Positions 13,809 to 63,741 of a stretch of DNA of 64,000 nucleotides are shown here, one piece after another. The stretch is from the NCBI GenBank assembly GCA_027621365.1, contig JAQCBH010000005.1, positions 54,658 through 118,657 of the forward strand, in the 5' to 3' direction. The DNA is from Bacteroidota bacterium (GTDB lineage Bacteria > Bacteroidota > Bacteroidia > NS11-12g > UBA955). The stretch's first letter is position 1. Every line of letters begins with the position of its first letter. Under the pieces are notes generated by a model. That model was not told where the DNA came from, made no database searches, and saw only the letters and a program-made list of their open reading frames with translations. Made by a program: the position numbers and the translations under genes.

Positions 13809-16800
13809 TCAACGATTGATGATCAATTTTTGTGTTTGTACTTCGGTTCCTTGGATTACACGCACAGTGTACATTCCAGGAGCAACCTGAGACAAGTCAA
13901 GGGTTTGACGACCAAAGCCGTTTTCTACACCGTTCAACTGGTACACTACTGCACCCAAAGCATTGATGACGGAAATGTCGGCTTTTTGCTGAGCAATGCC
14001 CTTCCACACCAAGGTAACCTCACCTCGTGTTGGGTTGGGCTGAACAGTCAAATGACCTTTCGCGTTAGCCTCTTCAACTCCCATGTAAGTATTGAAACAG
14101 TTGGGGGGGTATTCCACGTACACCTCACGTACCACCAAGTTCGATTGGTTGCCGCTAGGATCAGTCACTTGATAAGTGATGCTGTACACTCCGCTCTGCC
14201 AAATGTTTACATTGTGGGTAACCACCTCAACCAAAGGCATCAAATCGGTAGCCGAATAGTAGTTGTCGCGAACCTGAATACCACTAATGGCCCAGAAAGG
14301 TGTACCTACACAAGCACTCACAACAGGAGCTACGAGCTCAGGCGCTTTGCGGTCTACTACCTTTACGAAACGTGATTTGGTGGTTGAATTTCCACTCTCG
14401 TCAATGGCGGTATAAGACTCTTCATACATACCCAAAGTGTAAACATCAACAGAACCTGACTTGGTCACAGAAATCTGAGACAAGGGGTAGTAGTTGTCGC
14501 TCACCGTCACGCTGCGAGAAGAGTACGGAGTCATGACATCGTGCAAAATGGTATCGCTGGTGTTCAACTCGATGTTGGGGGCGATGAAATCATCAACGCG
14601 GTAATTGATCGTATAGCCATCTTCATCGGCTGCGTTTCCGCTAGGATCTTTGGCCTTGTAAGTGATGGGGTAAGTTGCGCGAATCTGCGTATTTACCTGA
14701 CCATTGAATCCTGGGTTCTTGCTCAAGAAGATGGAACCATTGCAGTCGTCCATGGCGTAAACCTCATCAACAAAAGGAGACTTGATCTGCACATCGATGG
14801 TAGCTCCATCGGTGATGCGCTGATTCAAACGGTAAATACCGGGCTTCTTGGTGTCGCGCACTTGAACCAAACGAGTGGCGGTTGCGGTGTTTCCTTGAGC
14901 ATCCTTCACGGTATATACCAAGGTATAATCACCCACAGTGCTAGCATCAACACTACCAGAAATTTGAATGGCCGAGGTCAAGTTGCCATCTACGGCATCG
15001 TTGGCCACTGCACCCAATTCGCTGTAGGTATCGCATTGCTCCATGGTAATGGTGGTATTTCCATTCAAAGTCAACACAGGAGCGGTACGGTCGAGAACGA
15101 CGATTACGGTACGAGTGCGTTGCTCTGCTTTGTTACCAGAAGCGTCTTCTACATCGAAGGTGATGCTGTACACACCTGGAACCGTGCAATCCAAATCGCT
15201 ATTCACTACCACCAATGAAGTCATATCGCCTTCGGTAGGATCATTAGCAGAGTACGTAGAATTGGCCACTTCGGCATAGCAAGAAGTCTTGCTGGAACCG
15301 CGCTCCACACGAATCGTATCGCTTCCCACCAAACGGAAAGTAGGCACAGTCATGTCGTTGGCCAATTTCAGCAAATAATCTTCGTACTCACCTACTTGGT
15401 TGACACCACATGGCGTATTTGAGAAATTCGAGAATGAAGCAGCCACACGCAAGCGGGTCAAACCTTCAAAACTCTGGCTCAATTTGGGAACCTTAACGGA
15501 AGCGCTCGCGCTAGTACCCGTCATGCTTCCAGTGCTCATCACTTCCTCACCTGCATCGTTGAAATCACCATCAATGTTCCAGTCAACCCAAGCTTTGTAA
15601 TTCACAGGGTTAGAGTTCGACAAGCGAGTAACAGTCAAATCATAAGTAGAACCAAAGGTCAATACAGCGGGGTATTTGGTTTCAGCATAGCTGGTGTAAG
15701 CCGCTTGACCACCATCTGTATTGCTGTTGATCAACTTCACGCCATTGCTATTTTCCAAGGTCACTGTATTGATCGCCACGTCGGCTGACATCATGCTAAC
15801 CAAAGGTGTGCAGTAATCCAGCACAATCACATACTTGTTCTTGATCAACTTCTTCTGAGTAGCAGAATCGCCACCTACAGAATTCCAAGCCTTCAAGGTA
15901 AAGGTGTACGCACCGCCCTTCAAGAACTTGATCTGAGGGTTCTGGCTAGAAGCGCTAGTACCATTCATGTAAGTGAACGAAGTGGGGAAAATGTTTGACT
16001 CGAATTTGTTGGCGTAGTCAGTCTTTGTCGTAAAGCTCACAACATCCAACACATTGGGGCGCACATTGTCAGCCGTGTAATCCAGTGCACCGGGCTTAGT
16101 TGGCGTCAAGATGGTCACATTGTCGCAGAAGGTATCGTTGCCGTTACAGGTCTGGGCCACCAAACAAACCTCGTAAGTTCCGTCTGTTGAGAAGAACTCC
16201 GTGTAAGATTCGCCGGTACCTGCAACGTTCTGATCCACCCACCACTCGTAGGTAGGAGCTCCTTCGGTTTGAGTCGAAGCGTTGGCAAAGGTCACGGCCA
16301 TGCTATTGGCAGCAGGATTGTAATCAGTTGTCCACTTTGCATTGGGAGGCAAGGCAGGGCCCAATTTGCTCTTCCAATTCAAAATGAATCCTTTGTCGTT
16401 GCCAGAACCGTTGGTTTCGAACGTGATGTAACCCGCACCGCTGGTCAACACGATATCAGTTGTATCCCAGTAAGCCTGGTTGGTGGAAGTGATACCTTCT
16501 GTTGGAGTTACTTCCTTTGAAGGATCAGCTTCAGTAGCATCGTAGATGCGAATTTTATCACCGGCATCCTTCAATACCAATTCCTCAAAACTCAAGGTGA
16601 TTTTCTCAGCACCGCAAGGAAGAATTTTGAAGTAGTCAATAGAGGGCTTACGGTTATCGCCGTAATTGGCGGTTGGACCTCCATTATCAAACAAAGTACC
16701 GTTTTTGCTGTTGCCTTCTTTGCTGGGGCCCATGTAGAACTCAGTAGCTGAGGTACATTCGATGTATTTGCTCTTGCAAGTAGTGGTAGAGGGCCCGATA

Positions 16801-17840
16801 TCGTTTTCAGAAGTCAAGCAGACCTTGTACCATCCAAATTCATTCAGAGTGAAAATGGGATTCTGATCAGTGGCCGTTTGGTCGTCTGCCCCTGTGGGAG
16901 AGTACAATTCCCAACTCCATTTGTAGGCGCCGTTGTCGCTCAAATCAAACAACTGTACATTGTAGTATTGCTCTACTTCATTCAAATCAGAAATAAAATC
17001 AGCATTAGGAGCAGCCGTAGGAGCCACAATTTTCACTGTATTTACAGCAGAATCTTTGTCTCCACAGTAGTCAACCATCAACTTTACATCATAAGTTCCC
17101 GCATTATTCCATGAGGCAATGCCCTTAACGGCATTATTGGAAACGATGGTTGACGCCTGGTCGAAGGTCCAATTGTAGGTCCAGTTTCCGCCGCCGCCTG
17201 CTGTGAAGACAGTAGGAGACTTTACATAACTGGTACCCGTAGGAACAGAAAAAGTCGCGGTTGGCTTGGTGACATTCAAGATATTCACCTCAAAGTCCAT
17301 GATGTTACCATAATTGTTCAGTGTTCCACAACCCTGTGAGGTCGAGAACGTGCTATACAAGCAACGAACACGCAAAATGGCAGTACCCGCGCTCTGATTG
17401 CCACAGGGAATTTTAATTTTCACCGTCTTGTTTTGGTAGGCAGCAATCCGTCCAAATGGGCCTGAAGGACCTGAAATACACTCGGTGGTTTGAAAGTTAT
17501 TGTCGCGATTCAAATCCAACCATACTCCGGCCCATTCCGCATAGGAACAACCGTTGGAGATGTACATTTCAATCTCCTCGCCTGGAGTGATGTCGATGCA
17601 GGGACCGCTGGTCATCAATTTGTTGGTTGCGCCAGTGTTGCCACAGGTCAAACCCGAGAAGGAGGCTACCTGCCCCTTGCTGTTTTTGATGGTCACGGCA
17701 TCGAACCAGTCGATGCTGCAACCGTAGGAGTTCGTTGCCGCGCAAATTTGAGCCTGAGCAGCATGCCCGAATCCCCAGGTGGAGGCCAACAAAAGCCCAG
17801 CCTTCCAACCCAAGTTTTTAAGCGTTTTAGTGAATTTCAT
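13809..17840 (-). CDS. Giant secreted adhesin-like protein (about 1343 aa). It has an N-terminal Cys-rich GEVED-like domain, PKD/Ig-like and multiple HYR-like repeats, and a T9SS C-terminal sorting domain.
   Basis: Signal peptide. N-terminal region has 10 or more Cys and YGNIMDFEV. Repeated D-x-x-GN-x-A-x-x-x-R-x-V-x-V-x-D-x-x-x-P units (ASGNKAEQRTRTVIVVLDRTAPV, AQGNTATATRLVQVRDTKKP, ESGNSTTKSRFVKVVDRKAPE). C-terminus …YTVRVIQGTEVQTQKLIINR. Confidence 0.8.
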   Translation of the reverse strand: MKFTKTLKNLGWKAGLLLASTWGFGHAAQAQICAATNSYGCSIDWFDAVTIKNSKGQVASFSGLTCGNTGATNKLMTSGPCIDITPGEEIEMYISNGCSYAEWAGVWLDLNRDNNFQTTECISGPSGPFGRIAAYQNKTVKIKIPCGNQSAGTAILRVRCLYSTFSTSQGCGTLNNYGNIMDFEVNILNVTKPTATFSVPTGTSYVKSPTVFTAGGGGNWTYNWTFDQASTIVSNNAVKGIASWNNAGTYDVKLMVDYCGDKDSAVNTVKIVAPTAAPNADFISDLNEVEQYYNVQLFDLSDNGAYKWSWELYSPTGADDQTATDQNPIFTLNEFGWYKVCLTSENDIGPSTTTCKSKYIECTSATEFYMGPSKEGNSKNGTLFDNGGPTANYGDNRKPSIDYFKILPCGAEKITLSFEELVLKDAGDKIRIYDATEADPSKEVTPTEGITSTNQAYWDTTDIVLTSGAGYITFETNGSGNDKGFILNWKSKLGPALPPNAKWTTDYNPAANSMAVTFANASTQTEGAPTYEWWVDQNVAGTGESYTEFFSTDGTYEVCLVAQTCNGNDTFCDNVTILTPTKPGALDYTADNVRPNVLDVVSFTTKTDYANKFESNIFPTSFTYMNGTSASSQNPQIKFLKGGAYTFTLKAWNSVGGDSATQKKLIKNKYVIVLDYCTPLVSMMSADVAINTVTLENSNGVKLINSNTDGGQAAYTSYAETKYPAVLTFGSTYDLTVTRLSNSNPVNYKAWVDWNIDGDFNDAGEEVMSTGSMTGTSASASVKVPKLSQSFEGLTRLRVAASFSNFSNTPCGVNQVGEYEDYLLKLANDMTVPTFRLVGSDTIRVERGSSKTSCYAEVANSTYSANDPTEGDMTSLVVVNSDLDCTVPGVYSITFDVEDASGNKAEQRTRTVIVVLDRTAPVLTLNGNTTITMEQCDTYSELGAVANDAVDGNLTSAIQISGSVDASTVGDYTLVYTVKDAQGNTATATRLVQVRDTKKPGIYRLNQRITDGATIDVQIKSPFVDEVYAMDDCNGSIFLSKNPGFNGQVNTQIRATYPITYKAKDPSGNAADEDGYTINYRVDDFIAPNIELNTSDTILHDVMTPYSSRSVTVSDNYYPLSQISVTKSGSVDVYTLGMYEESYTAIDESGNSTTKSRFVKVVDRKAPELVAPVVSACVGTPFWAISGIQVRDNYYSATDLMPLVEVVTHNVNIWQSGVYSITYQVTDPSGNQSNLVVREVYVEYPPNCFNTYMGVEEANAKGHLTVQPNPTRGEVTLVWKGIAQQKADISVINALGAVVYQLNGVENGFGRQTLDLSQVAPGMYTVRVIQGTEVQTQKLIINR

Positions 17841-17988: not shown

Positions 17989-19602
17989 CTAAGGAATCAC
18001 CAAGCGATCGCCCACTTTGATTTGAGAATGGCTCAACTCATTTTTCGTCATGATATCGTTGACGCTTACCCCATACAATTGGGAGATTCGAAACAGGGTC
18101 TCCCCCGGTTTCACGAAGTGAACTCTGGACGTCGACGGAGCCGCTTCGCTTCGCGCTTCAGATGGAACCAACCACAACCATTGACCCGCTTGTATATGAC
18201 CCGAGGTAGTAAGATCATTGTACCCCATCAAGTCCTCTACTGACAAGCGGTACATTCGAGCAATTGACCATAGGGTCTCCCCCGTTTGTACCTGGTGCTT
18301 CTCAACCAGTCGAGTGGCTGAAGATCCTTCTGTGCTTGATTGCATACCGCTTCTCAAACCAGGATGAAGGATCAAAACCTGACCTGGAGATAGCTCCATT
18401 GATTCCAAGTTGTTCCAGCGAAACAAATCCACTCGGTCCAATCCGTAGCGCAGGGCAACAGCATCCAAGGTTTCTCCTCGGCGAACAACGTGATAAGCCT
18501 TATTGCCATCACGGCTGTAGACAGTATCCTGCACAGAGGTCGAAGGCAACACATAGGTACTAGGCTTATCGTTTCTCGAACCTTGCAAGACCAATTCCTC
18601 ACCGGGTGATACCTGTTCTTGTGACTCGTAATCCAAGAGGTTCATTTTGTACAGGGCTCGGGTGCGAATGCCATATTGCTGGGCAATGTCACGGATGTGC
18701 TCGCCTTGTTTGACGGTGTGAGAACTCGCCAAATTCGATTCCCGGCGTTTGGGCTTTAGGTACAAAATATCGCCGGGATTCACCGGTGCACCGGGTTGCA
18801 AATCGTTGTATTTGTAGAGCTTTGAAACGGGAACTCCACCCTGCTCCGAAATGGTTCCCACTCCCTGGCCTTGGCGAACGGCAGCCGCTGGAAGTCCATT
18901 GATCTCCATGGCAAGCAAAGTATCGGCTCGACCCGTAAAATACTCGGGGCCTAGCACCACCAAGCTGTCGTAATACCCCAGCCGATACCGCTTGATCACG
19001 CCAATGAGTATATCACCATAGGCCGGATTGGTCGCATAACCTGCCAATCGCAATCCATGGGCCCAATTCACATAATCAGCAGCGGGAAGCTCAAACAGGG
19101 AGGCATAGCGCTTGCTGTTTTTTAAAAACAGGCTATGGTCCCGATAGGAATCCATGGCCGACGGATAGCTGCGAAAACACTCGTCCTTGGCATCATCATC
19201 AGCCAAACAAGTACCACCCGTCCAGGTGCTTCGGCATTTGATTCCAAAATGGTTGTTGCATTCAACGGCCAATTTACTGTTCCCTGATGCACTCTCCAAT
19301 ATGCCTTGACCCAAGGTGATACTGGCAGGTACACCGTAGGTCTGCATTTCTACCATGGCTGCTCGAGAGAAGCTATCGATGTATTGCTTTGCGCTCTTCA
19401 CCTGAGCCGATAGACTCAACGCTCCAAAGGCCGCAGCCAAGCAAACTCCACGTCGAAACACGGGATCAAACTTAGCCCCAAGCCCATTCGGGCACAAACG
19501 GGCTTCTGCACGGCCCTGCCGCTTGCCCACAAAGCAGTACACCAACTTGCGGTTAATCCAATCCTTTGGCCGAAATTTGTGGGACATGCAAAAACGCATC
19601 AT
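17989..19602 (-). CDS. Peptidoglycan hydrolase with an N-terminal glucosaminidase (FlgJ-like) domain and four LysM repeats. The start is uncertain.
   Basis: TLGQGILESASGNSKLAVECNNHFGIK (glucosaminidase). Four LysM units (HTVKQGEHIRDIAQQYG, HVVRRGETLDAVALRYG, HQVQTGETLWSIARMYR, HFVKPGETLFRISQLYG). Confidence 0.8.
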   Translation of the reverse strand: MMRFCMSHKFRPKDWINRKLVYCFVGKRQGRAEARLCPNGLGAKFDPVFRRGVCLAAAFGALSLSAQVKSAKQYIDSFSRAAMVEMQTYGVPASITLGQGILESASGNSKLAVECNNHFGIKCRSTWTGGTCLADDDAKDECFRSYPSAMDSYRDHSLFLKNSKRYASLFELPAADYVNWAHGLRLAGYATNPAYGDILIGVIKRYRLGYYDSLVVLGPEYFTGRADTLLAMEINGLPAAAVRQGQGVGTISEQGGVPVSKLYKYNDLQPGAPVNPGDILYLKPKRRESNLASSHTVKQGEHIRDIAQQYGIRTRALYKMNLLDYESQEQVSPGEELVLQGSRNDKPSTYVLPSTSVQDTVYSRDGNKAYHVVRRGETLDAVALRYGLDRVDLFRWNNLESMELSPGQVLILHPGLRSGMQSSTEGSSATRLVEKHQVQTGETLWSIARMYRLSVEDLMGYNDLTTSGHIQAGQWLWLVPSEARSEAAPSTSRVHFVKPGETLFRISQLYGVSVNDIMTKNELSHSQIKVGDRLVIP

Positions 19603-52889: not shown

Positions 52890-53222
52890 TCAATTGGGCA
52901 GTTCGCAGGCCCTTGAACCGAAGAGCCTGTATCGGTTTCTAGCCACCCATTTGTAGACGGCATCGCGAATCGGTGTGGGGAATAGAAACAGCAACTTCCA
53001 CAAGGGACCTCGGCAGCTGACCATGGCGCGAATCACTGCCGTAGAATAGATGTATGTTCGACCCTCTTCTATCCAGATCAGGCTATCCACACCGCTTTGC
53101 ATCCGATCTTGATTCTCTTGAATGGGCAGAAAGCGTACGTTTTTAGCCCGTTTGCCGCGTTGAATGAACGCCACGCAGCGGCTACAAAAACTGCAATCCC
53201 GATCAAAGTACAATTCTGGCAT
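52890..53222 (-). CDS. DCC-family thiol-disulfide oxidoreductase (DUF393).
   Basis: MPELYFDRDCSFCSRCVAFIQ contains the DxxCxxC motif. The start ATG shares one nucleotide with the upstream stop (TAATG). Confidence 0.7.
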   Translation of the reverse strand: MPELYFDRDCSFCSRCVAFIQRGKRAKNVRFLPIQENQDRMQSGVDSLIWIEEGRTYIYSTAVIRAMVSCRGPLWKLLFLFPTPIRDAVYKWVARNRYRLFGSRACELPN

Positions 53223-56200
53223 TAGGGCAATCGATTGAGGTATTGATCTACGGCTTGTTGATAGGGCCAACTTAAGGGTACCGCCGCGCGGTGCAAGGCC
53301 TCGGCTTCTTCCAATTTTTTTCGGATGGGCAAGGCCCATTCTTCGGGTATCTCTGAGGCCTGGCCCTGAGATTGCTCACCCCTTCTCTGCTCGTCTTGCT
53401 GTTGCTTTCGCTCTCCTTTTTCGTGCTCCAATAAACGCGTCAAGATCTCCTGTTGACGGAATTGCAACTGCGGCCCTAGTTGGCCGTTGATCAAATCCCG
53501 CTCCTGCTGCTCCATCAATTGCTCGGCCTCGTGCAGCAAATGCGCTGCACCTGGATCCCCCGCCTCGGCTGCCGCCTGTTTGAGCTTTTGAATTTCCCGC
53601 CTCAATTGCTCCTGCATGAGGGCCATTTGCCCCAATTCTTGGCTGAGTTGACGCTGTTGGCCTTGACTTCCACTTTGCCCGGATTGCCCTTGTGATTGCA
53701 TTTGCTGCAATTTTTCTCCCAAGGCTTTTTGGCTTTGGGACAAGCCTTGACCCGGCTTGGGTTTTCCCTGCTGACCGGGACCTTGTTTGTTGGGATTGTT
53801 GCAACTCTGGGAACCGCTTTTTTTCTGCTGAGCCGAGAGTTGTTGCTGCATGTTTTGCATGCTCTCCATCAAGAGAGCCGCCAAGGTATTGTAGGAGGTC
53901 ATGACGAATTGTTCGTGCATAGCTGCCGTGCGCAAATCCCTCTTCTTTAGTGATTGCAAGCCTTGCTCCATGCGGCGATTTACTTTGCTCATCTCACCCG
54001 TTACGATGCTGCTGATCATGGGCTGTCGGCGGGCCAAAGCCATGAGCGAATCTTCAACCGCCGTGCTCAATTCCCGAATTTCCATTTGCTGCTTGTTCAA
54101 GGCCAACACCCGCGGATTCTCGCCCGACAAGCTTTGCAACTCGGTAAACACGGCCTCTTGCCTCTTGCTCAAATCAATCAAATTGGCCAGCAAACGCCTC
54201 AAGGTTTCATAGTCTTCTTCCATGCGCTCTTCTTGGGCTTGATCCATGCTTTTCTGCAACTTTTCAGCCGCTTTTTTCATTTGATCAGCCGCTGACTTCT
54301 GTTGTTCAGAAGCTGCCTTTTGCTCGCCCTTTTCCAAGCTCTGCTGGGCTTGTTCGGCTTGACTCTGGGCTTGTGACTGTTCCGACTTGGGCACATCCAA
54401 TCCTAGAGGCTTTTCCAGGTCGGCATCGCGTTTTTCTATTTCTTGGCTGCGCTCGAGAATAGACTCCAACTGCTCCAATTGCTTTTCATGAGCCTGTTCC
54501 AAAGCCTGTTTTTCCGCCTCGGTCTTGGCCTGTTTGGAGGCCTCTGATAAAGCCTCCTCTTGCTCGGCCCAATCCTGCATCTGCTGCACTTGCTGATCGA
54601 GTAGTCGCTCGAGTTGCAGCTCTTTGATCTGCTCTTGCACATTGTCCAATTGCTTTTGGATGTCTTGGCGCATTCGGCTGATTTCTTGCATCTTTTGCCT
54701 AACCTCATCGGGCTCAGCCTTCTGGTTCAGCAAGTCTTGCAATTCTTTCATCAGCTTTTCGAGCTCGGCATTTTGCTTGAGCTCATTCAAACTTTCTTCC
54801 ACCTGCTTTTCCCTAAGGCTCTGCTCCTTTTGGCTGGGGTCCAATTCCAATTTCTTTTGGCTTTCGGCCAATTTCTGGGTCTGCGCTTGAAGTTGCTTTT
54901 GCTCGTTCAACCACTGCTGTACCGACTGTTTTTTATCGGCATCAAAACCCGATTCTTGCAGCAAACTTCGCTGCAAATCGCTGGCCCGTTTTTGCAAGTC
55001 TTGCTGGGCCTTGCTCGCTTTGCTCAGACCCGACTCCACTTGGTTCTGTTTGTCCAATTGCCACTGTTGCAATTCCCGCTGATCAGGCATTCGCAGCACT
55101 TGAGTCAAAGATTGAGCACACTGAGAACCCAATACCGCATTGTTGTCACAAGCGCGGCTGTAAACCAATATTTCTTCTCCGGGATTGGCCCCGTAATCTT
55201 GGGCTCGCAAATCTGCGACAAATGCAGCGCTGTGTTCGCGGTATTCAACCGGAACCGTCAACCGGGTAAACTGCGTTTGCCTTGGCCCTTTTACCCAGCA
55301 ATCCAAGGTTTGCAAACCGTGATCATCGATGGCCAATGATCGCAAGTACCAATGACCAGACTGACTGCTATCGGCCTGGGCCTCCAGCTCTACTTGAGGA
55401 GGGGCGTCGGCGACTACTTCAATGTGCAAGCACAAGGAATCTCCCCAAGCTGGCAAGCCCTTTCTTGGCTGACTGGAGCGAAGGGCGTAGACCCAATCTT
55501 CGCTGCTTCTCAGGTTCCGGGAAAAGCGCAATTGACCCTTTTTGATCTCTTTGGCCAGGTGAAAACTGCCAGAAAATTCGAGCAAATCGGCATGCGCAGC
55601 TTCCATCACCAAAGTCAATTCCGTGCCTGCCGGTACGATGACCGTACCCTGAGTTGGCCACTGAAGGGGCGCCTGGGAGTGCAGGTAAGAGGGGTATCGA
55701 GCCTCCAATCGAAGCGAAACAAAGCGGGGTGGTGCCCAAACGGGAAGCTCAAAAGGCTGAGAAACGAACTCGCCAGCCGCAAATCGCAGTTGCTTTCCTT
55801 GAGCAGCTCCCGACAATCGAAACGAGAAGGAATCGGGCCCCACCGACTGCATCAAATACTCCCCATCACCCCACAGACAGCGAACCGTAGAGGGAATTTC
55901 CCTGCCCTTGAGCTTGAGGGAAACTACGTATTCTCTGCCTTCTATCCAGGGCTCATTCGAGGGGTAAAAACAAAACTCAAAGGGGGCCGGCTTGGAAAAT
56001 TCTTGATCGTGCTGCCAGAGGCGTTGGGCTCCGCTCATCAAGCGCGAGGCATCCAAAACAAACCACAAACCAACCAATCCCAGCCCTACCGATAAACGGA
56101 TGGCCAGTTTCCGAAATGCTGCTGGATCCAGGGCCTGCCAAAAGGAAATGGGAGTCAAAGCCATAGACCGCTGCTCAATGGCGGCTTCCACCCAGACATC

Positions 56201-56572
56201 GGCCGCTTGGGCTTGCTTCAATTGCAGCAGGTTGATCAGCTTATCCTGGACTTCAGGAAAATGTTCGCCGATTTGCAGCGCTGCCTCTTCTCGAGTCAAG
56301 CGAGGCAACCAGGCACGGTATTGGGCAAAGGGCCGAATGACCAGCAACAAAGCAGATAGGCCCGAGGCCGTCAATAGCAAATAATATCCCCCGGTACGCA
56401 GCGAAGTGGACATCCACAGCCAATGTTCACCATAGGCCAATAGGAGCAACAAGAGCCCCGAACCCAGGCCCCAGAACAACAAACCGCGCAGAAATCGATG
56501 CCAATGGTATTGGTCGATGTAGGCGTCTAATTTGCGCTCAATGCTGCTCAAAGGAGTGGAAGGCTCCATCAT
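53222..56572 (-). CDS. Large (1116 aa) membrane-anchored protein with a long Q/E/K-rich coiled coil. It is possibly a member of the Bacteroidota DUF4175-like family.
   Basis: Two N-terminal TM helices (GLLFWGLGSGLLLLLLAYG, GGYYLLLTASGLSALLLVI). A ~350-aa mixed domain. About 450 aa of heptad-like Q/E/K/L repeats. Q/G/S low-complexity tracts (QGQSGQSGSQGQQRQ). Confidence 0.8.
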   Translation of the reverse strand: MMEPSTPLSSIERKLDAYIDQYHWHRFLRGLLFWGLGSGLLLLLLAYGEHWLWMSTSLRTGGYYLLLTASGLSALLLVIRPFAQYRAWLPRLTREEAALQIGEHFPEVQDKLINLLQLKQAQAADVWVEAAIEQRSMALTPISFWQALDPAAFRKLAIRLSVGLGLVGLWFVLDASRLMSGAQRLWQHDQEFSKPAPFEFCFYPSNEPWIEGREYVVSLKLKGREIPSTVRCLWGDGEYLMQSVGPDSFSFRLSGAAQGKQLRFAAGEFVSQPFELPVWAPPRFVSLRLEARYPSYLHSQAPLQWPTQGTVIVPAGTELTLVMEAAHADLLEFSGSFHLAKEIKKGQLRFSRNLRSSEDWVYALRSSQPRKGLPAWGDSLCLHIEVVADAPPQVELEAQADSSQSGHWYLRSLAIDDHGLQTLDCWVKGPRQTQFTRLTVPVEYREHSAAFVADLRAQDYGANPGEEILVYSRACDNNAVLGSQCAQSLTQVLRMPDQRELQQWQLDKQNQVESGLSKASKAQQDLQKRASDLQRSLLQESGFDADKKQSVQQWLNEQKQLQAQTQKLAESQKKLELDPSQKEQSLREKQVEESLNELKQNAELEKLMKELQDLLNQKAEPDEVRQKMQEISRMRQDIQKQLDNVQEQIKELQLERLLDQQVQQMQDWAEQEEALSEASKQAKTEAEKQALEQAHEKQLEQLESILERSQEIEKRDADLEKPLGLDVPKSEQSQAQSQAEQAQQSLEKGEQKAASEQQKSAADQMKKAAEKLQKSMDQAQEERMEEDYETLRRLLANLIDLSKRQEAVFTELQSLSGENPRVLALNKQQMEIRELSTAVEDSLMALARRQPMISSIVTGEMSKVNRRMEQGLQSLKKRDLRTAAMHEQFVMTSYNTLAALLMESMQNMQQQLSAQQKKSGSQSCNNPNKQGPGQQGKPKPGQGLSQSQKALGEKLQQMQSQGQSGQSGSQGQQRQLSQELGQMALMQEQLRREIQKLKQAAAEAGDPGAAHLLHEAEQLMEQQERDLINGQLGPQLQFRQQEILTRLLEHEKGERKQQQDEQRRGEQSQGQASEIPEEWALPIRKKLEEAEALHRAAVPLSWPYQQAVDQYLNRLP

Positions 56573-57330
56573 TTATCGAAAGGTAACGCAAATTCTGCGA
56601 CACCCCGTTCACGCAGTCGACGAACGGCATTGTCTAGCGATATACCCGCCGCCATAGCCGCGTTCAAACTCTCGGCTTGGCCCAAACGGGGAATGGTAAA
56701 TCGATGCAAATTCTCCAGCTCTTCGCCCATGCGAATGCCGTGCGACTCGCTGCCAATCAACAGCACGGACGGGGCCTCAAAGGGGGCATCATACAGAGAA
56801 GTCCCTTCCAAATAGGCACCAAAAACTCGCTTGTTTTTCAGGGCTTCAGCCAAATTGACGTAGACCACCTGCACCCTCAAAAAGGAGCCCATGCTCGCAG
56901 CCAGGCACTTGGGGTTGTATTGATCAACTGTGTCTTCAGAGGCCAAAACTTGGGTCATTCCGTACCAGTCGGCCAAACGAATCAGGGTTCCGAGATTGCC
57001 GGGATCGGCCAATCCATCAACAGCCAAGGTCAAAGGAGCTTGGTCTTGCCAAGTCTGCGCCGCAGGCATGATGACCACCGCCATAATACCCGGCGCCGTT
57101 TCGAATTGGCTCAGGCGCTTCATGTCGGCATCGCTGATGATTTCGCAAGTTTCGGGCAAGGCCTGCTTGGAAGCGTAGGATTCACTGGCCATAACCGCTT
57201 CTAGCTTCGCCCCTCTGTGGATTACTTCGTCTACGACCTTGCGCCCCTCAACTGTGAATAGCCCATATTTTTGTCGATACTTGGGCATTCGCAGAGAAGC
57301 GTATTGTTTCAATTTCGCAGCAGATGGCAT
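56569..57330 (-). CDS. TrmH/SpoU-family RNA 2'-O-methyltransferase (RlmB-like).
   Basis: SpoU substrate-binding N-domain. DPGNLGTLIRLADWYG. LIGSESHGI. ESLNAAMAAGISL. Confidence 0.85.
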   Translation of the reverse strand: MPSAAKLKQYASLRMPKYRQKYGLFTVEGRKVVDEVIHRGAKLEAVMASESYASKQALPETCEIISDADMKRLSQFETAPGIMAVVIMPAAQTWQDQAPLTLAVDGLADPGNLGTLIRLADWYGMTQVLASEDTVDQYNPKCLAASMGSFLRVQVVYVNLAEALKNKRVFGAYLEGTSLYDAPFEAPSVLLIGSESHGIRMGEELENLHRFTIPRLGQAESLNAAMAAGISLDNAVRRLRERGVAEFALPFDK

Positions 57331-57371
57331 GGCAGAGACACAAATATCATAGAAATAAAGCCTTCCTGCTA

Positions 57372-59705
57372 ATGGCTCTGCTGTTGTTCCTCTCCAGCTG
57401 CGGGGTAAAACGCTGCATTCCCGAGGGTCGCTTGTTGCTCAAACAAAACAGCATCACCCTGGTGGAGACCGAATCGGTCCCCTTTCGACCCAACAGAGAC
57501 GAGCTGCAAGCACAAATTTTGCATAGACCCAATAAGCGGGTTTTGTTCAACAAGTTGCCCATTTACCTGTGGTTCTATGCCCTGGGTTATGACGCCAAAG
57601 ACACCAGCAAAATCAGCCAAAGTGCGTTTCGCAGCCGATTGGTGAAACAAATGGGGGAAGAACCCATGCTCGTTGACAAGAGCTTGGCTCAACTCTCAGC
57701 CAACAACATTCGCAATTACCTGTTCAACAAAGGGTTTTTTGATGCCGAAGTGGGCTATTCCATCGAGGTACACGGTCACAAGGGAGCTGTGCGCTACCAC
57801 GTGTACTCGGGCCTGCCTTACCGCATCAACTCGGTCTTCAAAAACACCGCTGATTCTGGAATGGCCACATTGGTCGACAGCCTAACCAAATCGATGAATA
57901 CCTTTCGTCTCTGGTGGCCCAGCGACTTGAATCGATTCAAAACTGCCCGGGAAGAATTGACCAGCCAGCTGAGAGACTTGGGCTATTACGGCCTGCAACC
58001 CAGCGTATTTCACTACGACATCGACACCTTGTTCGCCAAAAAGGAGGCCCAAATCACCCTGTACATGGATGGCCAAGCCGATGGGGAGCCCTATCAAGTC
58101 TGGAAATTTGGCAGCGTGTACATGGACATTCAGTGCCCCGATGACTATGCCCTAAATCCCCTGTATCATGAATGGGCACACTTGGGAGCCCATCACTACA
58201 AAATGAATCATTATGCGCTGAAGCCCTTTGTACTTCGCAAGGTGATTTTGATCGACAGCGGGCAGCGTTATTCCCAGACCCGCATCAACCAGACCTACCG
58301 CGGATTGGTCGACATGGGCCTTTTTTCTTACGTAGAATTTCGTCTGGAGCCAGACTCCCAACAGCACGTGCTCAACGTTCGCATCCAAACCCAAGCCCTT
58401 CCGCGAATTCGCTGGATGGTCGAGCCCCAAATGCTCTATAGCCCCCAAGGAAGCAGCGGCACGAACTTCACTTCCAGCACCCAACGCAGTTTTGGCTTGG
58501 CCGGAATCATGTCCTTCAACAACTTGAACGCCATGGGCAACGGAGAACAGCTTCGACTCTCCGCCCTGACTTCGTTCGAAGCCATTTTCAAACGCAATGA
58601 CCTCGGCAATTTCGCCTACGGCTTGCAACAAGGATTCTCGGCCAGCATGACCGTTCCCAGCTTTCGCCTGCTGGATAAAATGGATGCCAAAAACCAGTAC
58701 GAGCGCAAAAACACCGTCTTCAGTTTGAGCTACCAAACCGAGAGCAACCCCAACTTTTTGCGCACCTCCCTGCCCGCCTCCTTCTCCCTGCAGTTCATTC
58801 GCCCCAACTTCAGCTGGTACTACACCCCGCTCGAATTCAGCTACAACCAAAACGAATTGGACCCCGCTTTCCTACCCCAGCTCAGCACCCTAGACCAGGA
58901 GTTTGTTCGCCGCGTATTCACCGACCAATTGATCACCGCCGCCAAAGTGGGCATGGTATACTCCAACAACCAAGACAAGCCCGGACAGAGCTACTTCTTC
59001 TCTCGCTTAGGTTTGGAAACCAGTGGCAACATGCACCGCCTGGGACGCTACTTGTTCGAACCCAATTACAACCCCGATTCCAATTACCAATTCTTTGGTG
59101 TGAACTACTTCCAGTACGCCAAATTGGGAGCCGAAATTCGGGTGCGTCACCACATCGACGAATTGAACACCATCGCCGTGCGATTGAATTCGGGCCTGGC
59201 CCTACCCTACTGGAACAGCGATGTGGTGCCCTACGACAAACGCTATTTCATCGGGGGTTCCAACAGCCTGCGGGCTTGGCAGCCCCGCCGCTTGGGTCCC
59301 GGAGCCACGCCAGAATCGGTGGGCAGCTTGATTGACCGATCGGGCGAGTTGCTGCTGGAAGCTTCGATTGAATACCGCTTTGGGGTGATCAAGAATTTCT
59401 TGGAAAGTGCCCTGTTTTTGGATGCCGGAAACATCTGGAACCTGAGTGTAGCCGGAGTCTCCAATCCCGATTACGGCGTATTCAACCGCAATACGTTCTT
59501 GTCGGAAGTAGCGCTCAACACCGGCATAGGTTTTCGATTCGATGTCGAAATCTTCATGTTCCGAGTCGACTGGGGAATTCCCATTCGAGACCCCAGTAAG
59601 CCCCTTGACCAGCGCTGGGTCATGAAGCAAATTCCGAGCACAGGTTTGGCCAATTGGACCTTCAAGGAGACGGCCGTGGCCATCGGCATAGGCTACCCAT
59701 TTTAA
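57372..59705 (+). CDS. Omp85-family (BamA/TamA-like) outer-membrane protein. The start was placed at MALLLFLSSCG; 57324 is the alternative.
   Basis: N-terminal signal peptide with SSCG. POTRA-like region. C-terminal 16-strand barrel with GGSNSLRAW, ending …AIGIGYPF. Confidence 0.85.
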   Translation: MALLLFLSSCGVKRCIPEGRLLLKQNSITLVETESVPFRPNRDELQAQILHRPNKRVLFNKLPIYLWFYALGYDAKDTSKISQSAFRSRLVKQMGEEPMLVDKSLAQLSANNIRNYLFNKGFFDAEVGYSIEVHGHKGAVRYHVYSGLPYRINSVFKNTADSGMATLVDSLTKSMNTFRLWWPSDLNRFKTAREELTSQLRDLGYYGLQPSVFHYDIDTLFAKKEAQITLYMDGQADGEPYQVWKFGSVYMDIQCPDDYALNPLYHEWAHLGAHHYKMNHYALKPFVLRKVILIDSGQRYSQTRINQTYRGLVDMGLFSYVEFRLEPDSQQHVLNVRIQTQALPRIRWMVEPQMLYSPQGSSGTNFTSSTQRSFGLAGIMSFNNLNAMGNGEQLRLSALTSFEAIFKRNDLGNFAYGLQQGFSASMTVPSFRLLDKMDAKNQYERKNTVFSLSYQTESNPNFLRTSLPASFSLQFIRPNFSWYYTPLEFSYNQNELDPAFLPQLSTLDQEFVRRVFTDQLITAAKVGMVYSNNQDKPGQSYFFSRLGLETSGNMHRLGRYLFEPNYNPDSNYQFFGVNYFQYAKLGAEIRVRHHIDELNTIAVRLNSGLALPYWNSDVVPYDKRYFIGGSNSLRAWQPRRLGPGATPESVGSLIDRSGELLLEASIEYRFGVIKNFLESALFLDAGNIWNLSVAGVSNPDYGVFNRNTFLSEVALNTGIGFRFDVEIFMFRVDWGIPIRDPSKPLDQRWVMKQIPSTGLANWTFKETAVAIGIGYPF

Positions 59706-59711
59706 GCCTTT

Positions 59712-60512
59712 TTGCTGCTTATCTTTGTGTTCATGCGATTGCTGTTTTTACTGCCCTTGACGCTCTTGATGGATGCCTGTGCCAGCTTGGTTGGCAACCT
59801 CAATGTCTTCCCCGTTCAGTACGACAAAGATTTGGGGGCCCAGGTCGCCCGCAACATCGATTCCACGAACGCGGCCACCTTGTTGGATTCTGCTCAGCAC
59901 GTCGAGTTGTACGCCTACCTCTACGGCATTCGCGATTCCATTTTGAAAACCGGACAGCTCGAGCACAGCGCTGACTTTGCCTGGAGATTGCGCATACTCA
60001 ACGACAGCACCTTGAACGCTTTCTGCACCCCCGGCGGATACATTTATTTCTACACCGGATTGATGCGTTACCTGGAAAGCGAAGACCAACTCGCTGGTGT
60101 CATGGCCCATGAAATGGCTCATGCTGACAAGCGTCACTCCACCGATGCGTTGACCCGTCAATACGGAACTGAAATCCTCCTGACGCTAGCCTTGGGCGGC
60201 GCCCAACCTTCCATGCTTCTTCAAATTGCCGAAGGATTGACCCATCTATCGTACGGCCGCAGCGCCGAAACCGAGTCAGATTTGAGCAGCGTGGATTGGC
60301 TGTACAAAACCGCCTACAACCCCACTGGAGCTGCTGGCTTTTTCAAGAAAATGCTGGATAGCAAAGCCCAAGAACCTCCTCAATTTTTGAGCACTCACCC
60401 CAATTCCGACAACCGCGTAGAAGCCATGACTGAACATTGGCAGTCGCTAGGTGGCAAGACCGGCCAAACCTTTGAAGAGCGCTACAAAGCCAAACTCAAA
60501 CTCATACCTTGA
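59712..60512 (+). CDS. M48-family zinc metalloprotease, lipoprotein-type and without TPR repeats.
   Basis: Signal peptide with a Cys in LLMDAC. HEXXH motif in VMAHEMAHADKRH. 6-bp gap after the Omp85 gene. Confidence 0.8.
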   Translation: MLLIFVFMRLLFLLPLTLLMDACASLVGNLNVFPVQYDKDLGAQVARNIDSTNAATLLDSAQHVELYAYLYGIRDSILKTGQLEHSADFAWRLRILNDSTLNAFCTPGGYIYFYTGLMRYLESEDQLAGVMAHEMAHADKRHSTDALTRQYGTEILLTLALGGAQPSMLLQIAEGLTHLSYGRSAETESDLSSVDWLYKTAYNPTGAAGFFKKMLDSKAQEPPQFLSTHPNSDNRVEAMTEHWQSLGGKTGQTFEERYKAKLKLIP

Positions 60513-61009
60513 TGAACGCGGTGGTCCGAACCCTTGCCTTGTTGCTTCTGTTGATTAGCCAACCCTTGTTTGGCCAACAGGACAGCTTGCCGAGTCAGGG
60601 CCAAAGCGAAAACGTAGCCGCCGTTCAATCTCTGTTGAACGAAGCTTACACCCATTTGAGGGTTCGCTATGTCTATGGAGGCAAAAGCCCAGCCGGCTTT
60701 GACTGCTCGGGCTATGTGGGCTATTGTTTCGGCCAAAGCTTAGAAATGAGCATGCCCAACCGCTCGGCCGATTACCGGGATTTTGGCTCTGAAATTTCGC
60801 TATTGGAGTGCCGTCCAGGCGATGTCATTTGTTTCTCAGGCCGCAACATCAATCGAACCATTGGCCATGTGGGAATCGTCATTGATGGTCACAGCGAAAA
60901 CCCGCTGTTCATTCATGCGTCAACCTCACAAGGCGTTCGAGTAGATGCCTTGCGCTCCCCCTATTTCGAACCCCGCTTCATCGGGGTTCGTCGGGTCATT
61001 CAGCCTTAG
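60509..61009 (+). CDS. NlpC/P60 (C40) cell-wall peptidase.
   Basis: Signal peptide. Catalytic Cys in GFDCSGYVGYCF. Catalytic His in GHVGIVIDG. 4-bp overlap with the M48 gene. Confidence 0.85.
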   Translation: MMNAVVRTLALLLLLISQPLFGQQDSLPSQGQSENVAAVQSLLNEAYTHLRVRYVYGGKSPAGFDCSGYVGYCFGQSLEMSMPNRSADYRDFGSEISLLECRPGDVICFSGRNINRTIGHVGIVIDGHSENPLFIHASTSQGVRVDALRSPYFEPRFIGVRRVIQP

Positions 61010-63548
61010 TTTCGGAACTTCCGCCCTTTTTGGAGCGAGAAGCTTTGGGTTTCACGACTCCCAAAGTCAGCTCATCGGCATCAGCCTTGCGGTCGACCTT
61101 GATGGTATCGCCCTCCTTCAAGGATCCTTGCAATACCTGCTCAGCCAACGGCTCTTCGAGGTACTTCTGCAAAGCTCGCTGCAAGGGTCGTGCTCCAAAA
61201 TCAGGATCAAAGCCTTTGTCAGCCAAAAACTCTTTGGCCCCATCGGTCAAGGTAACGCTGTATCCCAAAGCAGAAATGCGCTTGAGCATCTTGGCCATGC
61301 GAACATCCAAAATTTGAACGATTTCTTTTTTCTCCAAAGAGTTGAAGATGATCAAATCGTCTATACGGTTCAAGAACTCGGGAGAGAAGAACTTGCGAAT
61401 CTGGCCTTCGATGACCATTTTGGATTCCTTCTCTTTGCTCTCCTGCTTGTTATGAGTGCCAAAGCCGACACCGGTACCGAAGTCTTTCAACTGGCGTGAG
61501 CCGATGTTGGAGGTCATGATGATGACCGTATTTCTGAAGTCGATTTTGCGGCCCAGCGAGTCGGTCATTTGACCTTCGTCTAGTGTTTGCAAGAGCAAGT
61601 TGAACACATCGGGGTGGGCTTTCTCCACCTCATCGAACAGGACTACGCTGTAGGGCTTGCGGCGCACCTTTTCAGTCAGCATACCCCCTTCTTCGTATCC
61701 GACGTAACCTGGAGGCGCTCCGACCAAACGGCTTACGGCAAACTTCTCCATGAACTCGCTCATATCAATGCGAATCATGGCATCGTCGCTGTCGAACAAG
61801 AATTCGCTCAGGGCTTTGGCCAGCTCGGTCTTACCTACACCAGTGGGGCCTAGGAAAATGAACGAACCTATGGGGCGATTGGGTTCTTTGAAACCGGCCC
61901 GCGTGCGCTGAATGGTCTTGGTCATTTTTTCAATGGCCTTGTCCTGACCCACCACACGAGCCTTGAGAATTTCGCTCATTTGCAACAAGCGCTTGCCCTC
62001 GCTCTCGGTCATTCGCTTGACGGGAATGCCGGTCATCATGGAAATGACAGCGGCTATGTCTTCCTCACCTACCGCAAATCGCTTGTCGCGTGAAGAGCTC
62101 TCCCATTCGGCTTTGGCCACATCGAGTTGCTCCAAGAATTTCTTCTCCTTGTCGCGAAGGCGAGCCGCTTCTTCGAAGTTTTGGCTCTTGACCACCTTGT
62201 TTTTCTCTTCCTTGACACCCTCGATTTGGGCTTCCAAGTCCAAGATTTCATTGGGGACGTGAATGTTGGAGATGTGAACACGGGCTCCCGCCTCGTCCAA
62301 AATATCAATGGCCTTATCGGGCAAGTGACGATCGCTCATGTAGCGAACGCTCAACTCCACACAGGCTTTGATGGCATCGTCGCTGTATTGAACGCTATGG
62401 TGATCTTCGTATCGGGCTTTGATGTTGTGCAAAATCTCAACGGTTTCTTCAGCTGAAGCAGGCTCGATCAAGACCATTTGGAAACGGCGTTCCAAGGCAC
62501 CGTCTTTCTCAATATACTGGCGGTATTCATCCAGAGTGGTAGCACCGATGCATTGAATTTCGCCACGGGCCAGAGCAGGTTTGAACATGTTGCTGGCATC
62601 CAGAGAGCCGGAAGCTCCTCCAGCCCCAACAATGGTATGAATCTCGTCGATGAACAAAATGACATCGTCGGCCTTTTCCAATTCCATCATCAAGGCCTTC
62701 ATGCGCTCTTCAAATTGACCGCGGTACTTGGTACCGGCCACCATAGAAGCGATGTCCAAGCTCACCACGCGCTTGTTGAACAAGACGCGGCTCACCTTTC
62801 TTTGTATAATGCGCAAGGCCAAGCCCTCCGCAATGGCCGTTTTACCGACACCGGGCTCACCAATGAGCACAGGGTTGTTCTTTTTGCGGCGGCTGAGAAC
62901 CTGAGACACGCGCTCAATTTCTTTCTCGCGGCCAACGATGGGATCCAATTTACCCTCTTCGGCGGCCTTGGTCAAATCGCGACCAAAGTTGTCCAACACG
63001 GGAGTCTTGGTCTTGCCTTTTCCTCCTCGGGTTTGGTCTTTTTGGCGCTGTTCCTCGCGGTAGAAATCTTCGGGAGTATCTTGATCGTCGTTAGGCAATT
63101 CTCCTTTGATGGTCTCTACTCCTTCTTCTAGGGCAGCTTTGAACACGTCGTAATTGACCCCGTATTGGTTGAGCACCTTGGAGGCCATGTTGTCCTCATC
63201 GCGCAATATAGACAAGAGCAAATGTTCGGTTCCTATTAGATCTGTTTTGAAAATCTTCGCTTCCAAATAGGTGATTTTCAGGGCTTTTTCGGCTTGCTTG
63301 GTCAAGGGAATGTTTCCCAAATTGGCTGTTTTGGAAGCCGTGGTCTTGATCGCATCTTCGATGCTTTTTTTCAAACGCAAGGTGTCGATGTCCAACATCT
63401 TTATGGTTTGAATGGCCTTCCCTTCGCCTTCGCGTATCAAGCCCAACAACAGGTGCTCACACCCAATGTAATCGTGGCCCAAACGAATGGCTTCCTCTCG
63501 GCTGAACTGGATCACTTCTTTGACCCTGGGAGAAAATTTAGCTTCCAT
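60996..63548 (-). CDS. clpC: ATP-dependent Clp protease ATP-binding subunit ClpC.
   Basis: Two Clp_N repeats. Walker A motifs VLIGEPGVGKTAIAEGLA and FLGPTGVGKTELAKAL. UVR-like linker. The start was placed at MEAKFSPRV. Confidence 0.9.
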   Translation of the reverse strand: MEAKFSPRVKEVIQFSREEAIRLGHDYIGCEHLLLGLIREGEGKAIQTIKMLDIDTLRLKKSIEDAIKTTASKTANLGNIPLTKQAEKALKITYLEAKIFKTDLIGTEHLLLSILRDEDNMASKVLNQYGVNYDVFKAALEEGVETIKGELPNDDQDTPEDFYREEQRQKDQTRGGKGKTKTPVLDNFGRDLTKAAEEGKLDPIVGREKEIERVSQVLSRRKKNNPVLIGEPGVGKTAIAEGLALRIIQRKVSRVLFNKRVVSLDIASMVAGTKYRGQFEERMKALMMELEKADDVILFIDEIHTIVGAGGASGSLDASNMFKPALARGEIQCIGATTLDEYRQYIEKDGALERRFQMVLIEPASAEETVEILHNIKARYEDHHSVQYSDDAIKACVELSVRYMSDRHLPDKAIDILDEAGARVHISNIHVPNEILDLEAQIEGVKEEKNKVVKSQNFEEAARLRDKEKKFLEQLDVAKAEWESSSRDKRFAVGEEDIAAVISMMTGIPVKRMTESEGKRLLQMSEILKARVVGQDKAIEKMTKTIQRTRAGFKEPNRPIGSFIFLGPTGVGKTELAKALSEFLFDSDDAMIRIDMSEFMEKFAVSRLVGAPPGYVGYEEGGMLTEKVRRKPYSVVLFDEVEKAHPDVFNLLLQTLDEGQMTDSLGRKIDFRNTVIIMTSNIGSRQLKDFGTGVGFGTHNKQESKEKESKMVIEGQIRKFFSPEFLNRIDDLIIFNSLEKKEIVQILDVRMAKMLKRISALGYSVTLTDGAKEFLADKGFDPDFGARPLQRALQKYLEEPLAEQVLQGSLKEGDTIKVDRKADADELTLGVVKPKASRSKKGGSSETKAE

Positions 63549-63556
63549 GCTTGCAT

Positions 63557-63564
63557 CAAATTTA
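63557..63564 (-). promoter_or_regulatory. Putative -7 box TAAATTTG 8 nt upstream of the clpC ATG.
   Basis: The minus strand reads gaTAAATTTGatgcaagcATGGAAGCT. Confidence 0.3.
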
Positions 63565-63741
63565 TCATCAACGGGCGTATTCGCGAACGACAGTAACGCA
63601 CATGCCGTCTGAATGTCCCGTGAACCACACAATGCCAAAGCCATGCCAACTTATGCACTTGTTCTTCACCGGCTCTGTGAACAATTTTTATACCTGACAT
63701 ACTGTCGCAATTCAGGCGCTATGTCATTACTTTGAAAGACT

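Follow-up and report, generated by a model that had tools for sequence, protein, structure and literature searches.

TamL proteins of the Bacteroidota consist of three POTRA domains followed by a 16-strand β-barrel, and in 2025 TamL was shown to be essential in Flavobacterium johnsoniae, where it functions in outer-membrane homeostasis (PMC12045153). In that bacterium, the protein is detectable only in exponential growth, apparently as a result of control at the protein level (PMC12045153). The tamL and tamB genes are reported to be unlinked in Bacteroidota, and tamL is described as monocistronic, with no mention of an M48 protease gene as its neighbor (PMC12045153). The locus considered here lies in a 64-kb stretch of Bacteroidota DNA ("the window", meaning the whole of the stretch analyzed) from an organism known only as a metagenome-assembled genome (MAG). 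In it, a tamL gene is directly followed by genes encoding an M48 metalloprotease and an NlpC/P60 peptidase.

The two downstream genes also have described relatives. The M48 proteases BepA, YcaL, LoiP and HtpX share the signature H-E-x-x-H-x(30,140)-H-P-x(4)-R (PMC7950410). BepA is a soluble periplasmic enzyme with a C-terminal domain of tetratricopeptide repeats (TPRs) through which it binds the β-barrel assembly machinery (BAM). In contrast, YcaL and LoiP of Escherichia coli, as well as the Geobacter sulfurreducens protein of structure 3C37, are single-domain lipoproteins of ~250 aa that have no TPRs. Despite this lack, YcaL is reported to act on unfolded substrates engaged with BAM (PMC7950410). 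Neither ycaL nor loiP lies beside bam or tam genes in E. coli, unlike the M48 gene of the window, which lies beside tamL. The closest described relative of the NlpC/P60 protein is E. coli MepS (Spr), a murein DD-endopeptidase/LD-carboxypeptidase made with a lipoprotein signal.

Each of the three window genes is a member of a known family, namely TamL, the YcaL/LoiP/3C37-like M48 proteases and the MepS-like C40 peptidases. A first-pass annotation of this DNA had read them as a single operon, which it suggested may be dedicated to barrel assembly and its quality control. The reading that we favor, with some reserve, is that the locus is an inherited neighborhood of envelope genes that act independently, with the M48 and NlpC/P60 genes forming a sub-unit of it. 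Closely spaced genes on the same strand are common in bacteria, and spacing by itself is no proof of a functional module. Gene calls in the window were based on an open reading frame (ORF) scan combined with Pfam and NCBIfam profile searches. The scan returned three consecutive plus-strand ORFs at 57324–61009, all of them intact and where the first-pass annotation had placed them. These genes and their immediate neighbors are as follows:

57324–59705, plus strand: tamL, encoding the Omp85 protein, 793 aa from an ATG start
59733–60512, plus strand: M48 protease, 259 aa from an ATG start (alternative TTG at 59712, giving 266 aa)
60512–61009, plus strand: NlpC/P60 peptidase, 165 aa from an ATG start (alternative TTG at 60509, giving 166 aa)
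56569–57330, minus strand: SpoU-class (RlmB/TrmH-like) RNA 2'-O-methyltransferase, 253 aa (alternative start at 57288), divergent from tamL
60996–63644, minus strand: ClpC/ClpB-type AAA+ chaperone, convergent with the preceding genes and marking the cluster boundary

The 793-aa protein is a bona fide TamL. It scores 524.4 bits against the NCBIfam lipo_TamL model (NF052279; cut-off 400), with an alignment that covers positions 2–747 of 747, and it falls far under the NCBIfam cut-offs for BamA and TamA. Pfam Omp85 is matched at 79.8 bits, and a Pfam POTRA match lies at residues 116–160. The N-terminal segment encoded at 57324–57401, MAWQRHKYHRNKAFLLMALLLFLSSC, has a basic n-region and a hydrophobic core ahead of the lipobox LSSC, whose cysteine (Cys26, 57399–57401) is found in at least 90% of 61 homologues. 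Lipidation at Cys26 is predicted, and a lipoprotein signal with this conserved cysteine, like passage of the TamL model, is shared with F. johnsoniae TamL (Fjoh_1464). An AlphaFold2 model built on the homologue alignment (predicted local distance difference test score, 85.5; predicted template modeling score, 0.75) has 16 barrel strands in residues 362–790, preceded by three beta-alpha-alpha-beta-beta units at ~38–161, 167–248 and 261–358, with boundaries that are approximate and were read from the secondary-structure pattern. A POTRA count, which the first-pass annotation had named as a check, is therefore three in the model, the same layout as in Fjoh_1464 and proteobacterial TamA. The top fold match in the PDB is Pseudomonas aeruginosa TamA (8US1, E 3.7e-27), ahead of BamA. 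The earlier description of a "BamA/TamA-like" barrel was thus right in pointing to an Omp85 protein of the TamA type, but the family is specifically TamL, which is already named and characterized. Unlike the TamL proteins of Flavobacteriales, to which it is ~25% identical, the window protein is shorter (793 vs. ~850 aa) and has an enlarged helical insertion in POTRA1.

TamL2, a dispensable paralogue of TamL, was considered and ruled out for the window protein, since there is no tamB2 gene upstream of it (the divergent SpoU gene occupies that place) and it falls on a separate branch of the TamL tree. The TamL2-type loci L037, L053, L057, L064 and L066 have an ORF of 1650–1760 aa directly upstream and cluster apart; the ORF upstream of the L057 TamL2 was confirmed as TamB (PF04357). 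In that locus (L057:3038–12648, from an uncultured Flavobacterium MAG), tamB2 (1655 aa) and tamL2 directly precede the genes of MlaE, an ABC ATPase and MlaD. This order, which places a paralogue of TAM (translocation and assembly module) beside a phospholipid-transport system, had no counterpart in the remaining TamL2 loci that were examined. A check of the large ORFs revealed no tamB within the 64-kb window, which fits the reported lack of linkage between the two genes in Bacteroidota. As in Flavobacterium loci, the window tamL lies away from tamB and beside a divergent SpoU gene. One of these large ORFs, of 1343 aa, proved to be an adhesin-like protein sorted by the type IX secretion system (T9SS). 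It lies at 13809–17840 on the minus strand and carries a Por_Secre_tail C-terminal domain with GEVED, PKD and bacterial Ig-like domains. This T9SS cargo protein shows that the organism has a T9SS, and it is unrelated to the tamL locus. A connection of the locus to T9SS or to large barrel substrates, as had been suggested earlier, found nothing in its favor beyond ordinary T9SS cargo genes.

The start codons of the cluster bear on how its genes are linked. The tamL start at 57324 is right, and the public call of 777 aa, which begins at Met17, is probably wrong. The longer form is preferred because many homologues conserve its N-terminal "MAxxx-KY" segment, and the shorter form is disfavored because just 9 residues would precede the lipobox cysteine. 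The stop codon of tamL (59703–59705) is followed after 6 bp by the TTG and after 27 bp by the ATG of the M48 gene. The M48 stop codon TGA (60510–60512) overlaps the NlpC/P60 start (TTGATG) by 4 bp if the TTG is used, or by 1 bp (TGATG) if the ATG is used. Public gene calls for the same organism (NCBI GCA_027624215.1, a "Bacteroidetes bacterium" MAG) start at ATG 59733 and ATG 60512, both of which agree with homologue alignments. It is on these grounds, the public calls and the fit of homologue N-termini, that ATG 59733 is considered likelier than the TTG for the M48 gene. The 6-bp gap and 4-bp overlap first described are accordingly correct for TTG starts, whereas the likelier ATG starts give 27 bp and 1 bp. 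On the other side of tamL, the SpoU and tamL starts overlap by 7 bp or lie 35–83 bp apart, depending on the choice of start codons; the 41 bp first noted for this divergent pair is the spacing in the NCBI gene call (L083). The base composition of the tamL region is flat.

The second gene encodes an M48 protease with a score of 94.7 bits against Pfam Peptidase_M48 (PF01435; cut-off 20.3). Its signal, MRLLFLLPLTLLMDAC, ends in a lipobox with an invariant Cys16 (59778–59780). The zinc-binding motif HEMAH (H126-E127-M-A-H130) is encoded at 60108–60122, the zinc-ligand Glu179 at 60267–60269, and the HPx4R active-site plug (H222-P-N-S-D-N-R228) at 60396–60416. None of these catalytic and plug residues varies among 16 aligned orthologues of 51–85% identity, and they include the downstream glutamate whose absence would have counted against the original assignment. 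The family, lipobox and HEMAH motif of that assignment are all upheld, but a length of 259 aa is likelier than the 266 aa first given.

The nearest solved structure is the Geobacter M48 protein 3C37, matched over its full length at 120 bits. The protease domain is also homologous to that of BepA, scoring 62 bits against 6AIT and 6SAR, and the zinc ligands and plug are shared. Unlike BepA, the window protein has no C-terminal TPR domain and bears a lipoprotein signal. Membership in the BepA family (NCBIfam NF052400) was rejected at 89.4 bits vs. 570, given that the match spans profile positions 91–251 of 483 and TPRs are missing. LoiP membership (NF052399) is not supported by the score, which is far under the cut-off (56 vs. 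365 bits). Over the catalytic domain, the protein is 24–26% identical to E. coli YcaL and LoiP. From its sequence features, then, the M48 protein has the architecture of YcaL and LoiP, that of a small TPR-less lipoprotein with HEXXH, downstream glutamate and HPx4R plug, without demonstrable orthology to either. The absence of TPRs had earlier been presented as a contrast to Proteobacteria. This does not hold, as YcaL and LoiP of E. coli are already lipoproteins of this kind (PMC7950410). When clustered at 50%, the M48 family comprises 93 representatives at E ≤ 1e-30 and 11,162 at E ≤ 1e-10.

The residues that follow the lipobox cysteine are relevant to where the protease would act. The K-(D/E)2 motif is a surface-export signal of Bacteroidota lipoproteins (PMC5080379). 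In the window protein, the cysteine is followed by a segment (C-ASLVGN, 59778–59800) that lacks this acidic signal, as do its nearest relatives, and for this reason the sequence is consistent with a protease that faces the periplasm. Most M48 orthologues (L011–L014, L084–L087, L089, L090 and L093–L095) instead have C-KDDE, C-RDED or C-KDKAGGGG after the lipobox. Since these motifs resemble the surface-export signal, M48 topology may differ between lineages.

The third gene encodes a secreted NlpC/P60 protein, as had been proposed, with a score of 81 bits against Pfam NLPC_P60 (cut-off 23), a signal peptide and a complete Cys-His-His triad. The triad consists of Cys65 (60704–60706), His119 (60866–60868) and His135 (60914–60916). 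The protein's top match in the PDB is E. coli MepS (8XUD, 68 bits; also 2K1G), with which the DCSG, HVGI and HAS motifs are aligned. Unlike MepS, the protein has an ordinary signal peptide of the signal-peptidase-I type (…QPLFG|QQ) with no lipobox cysteine. Assignment as the MepS/Spr equivalog (NCBIfam NF008096) failed for want of a lipobox and at a score of 77.9 vs. 186 bits. The 165-aa protein is predicted to be a MepS/Spr-like NlpC/P60 (C40) endopeptidase with the same fold and triad. A homologue search went straight from near-identical proteins to generic C40 peptidases, and the distribution of the gene was read from the neighborhoods of the TamL loci that were fetched. A second peptidoglycan hydrolase of the window is encoded at 17989–19602 on the minus strand (537 aa, with a glucosaminidase domain and three LysM repeats).

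Conservation of gene order was assessed with an alignment spanning diverse TamL proteins, which was used to scan one genome per species; the window proteins were then searched against the best 80 loci (L001–L080). A neighbor-joining tree was built from 90 TamL sequences, and the context of the M48 gene was taken from 12 exact-protein look-ups. The deeply conserved feature of the locus is the divergent SpoU–tamL pair, which is present in 53 of the 80 TamL loci, across Flavobacteriales, Bacteroidales and others. By comparison, M48 lies directly after tamL in seven loci (L001, L008, L009 and L011–L014), and NlpC/P60 is downstream of tamL in three (L001, L002 and L009). The complete tamL–M48–NlpC/P60 trio is found in two (L001 and L009), as well as in the metagenomic loci L087 and L094 and in the window's own strain. 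In Flavobacteriales, the genes after tamL are instead fbaA–accD, on the same strand at a distance of 44–130 bp, and tamL there may not be monocistronic either. The expectation of a conserved three-gene order thus failed for the trio and for Bacteroidota at large, but the tamL–M48 pair does recur within one clade.

All M48-linked loci belong to a single TamL clade of the neighbor-joining tree, made up of two subclades whose TamL proteins are ~30% identical. The subclade of the window has the block MetRS – 1116-aa coiled-coil gene – SpoU, divergent from tamL – [M48] – [NlpC/P60], with clpC convergent at the far end. The bracketed genes are variably present: both are missing in L003–L006, where clpC abuts tamL, NlpC/P60 occurs without M48 in L002, and M48 occurs without NlpC/P60 in L008 and L088. 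In L094, a T9SS cargo gene rather than clpC lies downstream. The sister subclade has tamL–M48–lysA, with the exception of L010, in which lysA follows tamL without M48. With fbaA–accD, lysA or convergent clpC after it in different loci, tamL tolerates unrelated genes downstream. This pattern of presence points, as the simplest history, to a single insertion of M48 beside tamL, the addition of NlpC/P60 in one subclade, and repeated loss of both thereafter. On the M48 side, all ten orthologues of at least 51% identity that were looked up lie directly after a tamL with a divergent SpoU gene upstream. A relative at 45% identity lies between uvrC and a thiL-like gene and not after tamL; another, at 39%, is flanked by ammonium-transporter and SIMPL genes and, at its opposite end, by a trypsin-like gene. 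Within one orthogroup and lineage, then, the tamL–M48 pair is stable; elsewhere it is absent. Several of the public MAGs syntenic with the window (L001, L003, L004, L007, L009) bear such names as "uncultured Bifidobacterium sp.", "uncultured Rhizobium sp." and "Chitinophaga pinensis"; they are clearly Bacteroidota, and their source labels are probably wrong.

A linkage of this kind invites a functional explanation. By analogy with the proteases that serve BAM, the locus could be a dedicated quality-control module of TAM, in which M48 would dock at TamL and degrade substrates stalled on TamL/TamB, while NlpC/P60 would trim the peptidoglycan locally where the TamB bridge crosses the envelope. 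We consider this doubtful. The adjacency of all ten M48 orthologues to tamL genes whose products diverge to ~30% identity, with changing downstream genes, argues for it, as does the TPR-less lipoprotein architecture that M48 shares with YcaL, a protease reported to target BAM-associated unfolded outer-membrane proteins (PMC7950410). The M48 catalytic residues are also all intact. However, most Bacteroidota do not have the linkage, among them those with F. johnsoniae-type loci, in which TamL is essential, and within the clade M48 has been lost at least three times (L002; L003–L006; L010) while tamL stays. The export-like motifs of most orthologues (C-KDDE, C-RDED) would send the protease to the cell surface, away from the POTRA domains (PMC5080379), and NlpC/P60 accompanies tamL at just three of the 80 loci. 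A likely separate promoter in the tamL–M48 gap, described below, points the same way. Moreover, SpoU–tamL synteny is deeper still yet comes with no plausible functional link, which makes synteny alone weak evidence in Bacteroidota. The fuller form of this model, in which M48 is a dedicated TAM accessory protease acting on TamL to clear stalled clients or TamL itself and NlpC/P60 opens the sacculus for TamB, is judged improbable.

The same adjacency data could be explained if M48 controlled the abundance of TamL, removing it as cells enter stationary phase. In F. johnsoniae, TamL is reported to be confined to one growth phase (PMC12045153), and BepA is reported to act on BamA (PMC7950410). Yet the F. 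johnsoniae-type loci from which the regulation data come have no M48 gene beside tamL, and the caution raised by the export-like motifs of the M48 orthologues holds for this role as well. We rate it as very improbable. Taken in total, a genuine TAM-linked protease role appears unlikely, its support being synteny in one lineage.

Transcription signals give a further view of how the genes are grouped. The −7 box of Bacteroidota sigma-A promoters, TAnnTTTG, spans −12 to −5 (PMC9723704), and two candidates are placed suggestively in the cluster:

57266–57273, plus strand: candidate tamL promoter −7 box TATTTTTG, 51 nt before the tamL ATG and within the SpoU coding region
59720–59727, plus strand: candidate internal promoter −7 box TATCTTTG, in the 27-bp tamL–M48 gap and 5 nt before the M48 ATG

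The second motif, TATCTTTG, would place a transcription start at ~59732, just 1 nt ahead of the M48 ATG. A TAnnTTTG motif also lies 5–17 nt before the M48 start in L088, L008, L089, L093 and L087. In six loci of the sister subclade, it lies 36–45 nt before the M48 start within the 3' end of tamL, where TAATTTTG is found exactly 27 nt before the tamL stop; this instance may be constrained by coding. Across the whole window, the motif occurs at chance frequency (30 found, 32 expected), with a background of ~1 per 640–4600 nt per strand, so that it is recurrent position, and not occurrence as such, that carries the promoter argument. A sigma-70 promoter and terminator scan of 56400–61400 stayed at the level of shuffled sequence, the method being one that does not apply to promoters of Bacteroidota. 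Between 47 and 64 kb, Rfam and tRNA scans found nothing.

Given the −7 box in the gap, co-transcription of M48 with tamL is not assured, and M48 and NlpC/P60 may belong to a separate leaderless or near-leaderless transcript unit with its candidate promoter there. The overlap of the M48 stop with the NlpC/P60 start recurs in L094 (4 bp), where a different gene lies downstream. As a unit of transcription and translation, the M48–NlpC/P60 pair is better supported than a three-gene operon with tamL. Of the operon first proposed, it is the M48–NlpC/P60 overlap that stands, while the link to tamL is not secure.

This coupling raises the prospect that the two proteins are a functional pair in their own right, with the protease processing or degrading the hydrolase and tamL an incidental neighbor. 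E. coli MepS, which the NlpC/P60 protein resembles, is controlled by the NlpI-Prc protease system, and an analogous arrangement would fit both the candidate shared promoter ahead of M48 and the stop/start overlap kept in the window and L094 despite different downstream genes. Nevertheless, M48 occurs without NlpC/P60 throughout the sister subclade and in L008 and L088, and NlpC/P60 occurs without M48 in L002. Since each is found alone, neither protein depends on the other, and a functional pairing is very improbable in our view.

Several observations weigh against the inherited neighborhood that is favored here. The M48–tamL adjacency is kept even though the other flank varies among clpC, lysA and a T9SS cargo gene, and no sampled M48 orthologue (at least 51% identity) has moved elsewhere, a pattern of "adjacent or absent". 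Such lasting adjacency is also what a functional partnership would produce. In addition, leaderless mRNAs account for 3.7–5.5% of Bacteroidota transcripts (PMC7366714, PMC9723704). Given this scarcity, the promoter reading of the gap motif may be wrong, and M48 and NlpC/P60 may simply be co-transcribed with tamL.

Under the favored reading of independently acting neighbors, TamL would be the lipid-anchored Omp85 subunit of the Bacteroidota TAM, with tamL probably driven by its own promoter within the divergent SpoU gene. M48 and NlpC/P60 would constitute a translationally coupled pair directly downstream of tamL, most likely with an additional promoter in the 27-bp gap, and read-through from tamL could also occur. 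The M48 lipoprotein would be anchored at the inner face of the outer membrane, where it would most likely degrade misfolded or stalled envelope proteins, substrates that we infer, and it may be regulated by its His-Pro plug in the manner of BepA. The NlpC/P60 protein, soluble in the periplasm, would cut peptidoglycan cross-links during growth. Their adjacency to tamL would then be an inherited arrangement of one uncultured Bacteroidota clade, and one that may reflect co-expression of envelope functions linked to growth.

Among the genes that flank the cluster, SpoU is one of context, with no implied part in the function of the others. The SpoU gene product matches Pfam SpoU_methylase (94.7 bits) and MRM3-like_sub_bind (44.5 bits), with a score for NCBIfam RlmB (74.6 bits) that is under the cut-off. 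The ClpC/ClpB-type protein has the Pfam domains Clp_N, AAA, AAA_2, AAA_lid_9, ClpB_D2-small and UVR. Its gene shares 14 bp (60996–61009) with the NlpC/P60 gene at their 3' ends, leaving no space for an intervening terminator. Upstream of SpoU on the minus strand (53222–56572) is the coiled-coil gene of the conserved block, which encodes a protein of 1116 aa that has transmembrane segments at the N terminus and a very long coiled coil rich in Gln, Glu and Lys; its sole family match is a weak one, to DUF4175. The gene is kept upstream of SpoU–tamL throughout the window subclade at 32–36% identity, and its start and the SpoU stop share 4 bp. At 52890–53339, also on the minus strand, is an ORF for a DCC1-like thiol-disulfide oxidoreductase. 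In its longest reading this ORF runs into the 3' end of the 1116-aa gene, but its true start is probably internal, at MPELYFDRDCSFC….

The locus mainly adds annotation, in the form of the right call and start codon for tamL, an M48 protease similar to YcaL and LoiP, and a hydrolase similar to MepS. No paper linking an M48 protease to tamL was found in the literature, and the clade-specific tamL–M48 adjacency is an undescribed but modest feature. The linkage is absent from the tractable models Flavobacterium, Bacteroides and Capnocytophaga, and the lead it offers comes from synteny, for which inherited gene order is an equally good explanation. Still, a protease gene kept beside tamL across a deep clade is an inexpensive and testable lead to an accessory or regulatory factor of TAM. 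If true, a TAM accessory M48 protease would be the first known quality-control factor associated with TAM, and the counterpart of BepA and YcaL at BAM.

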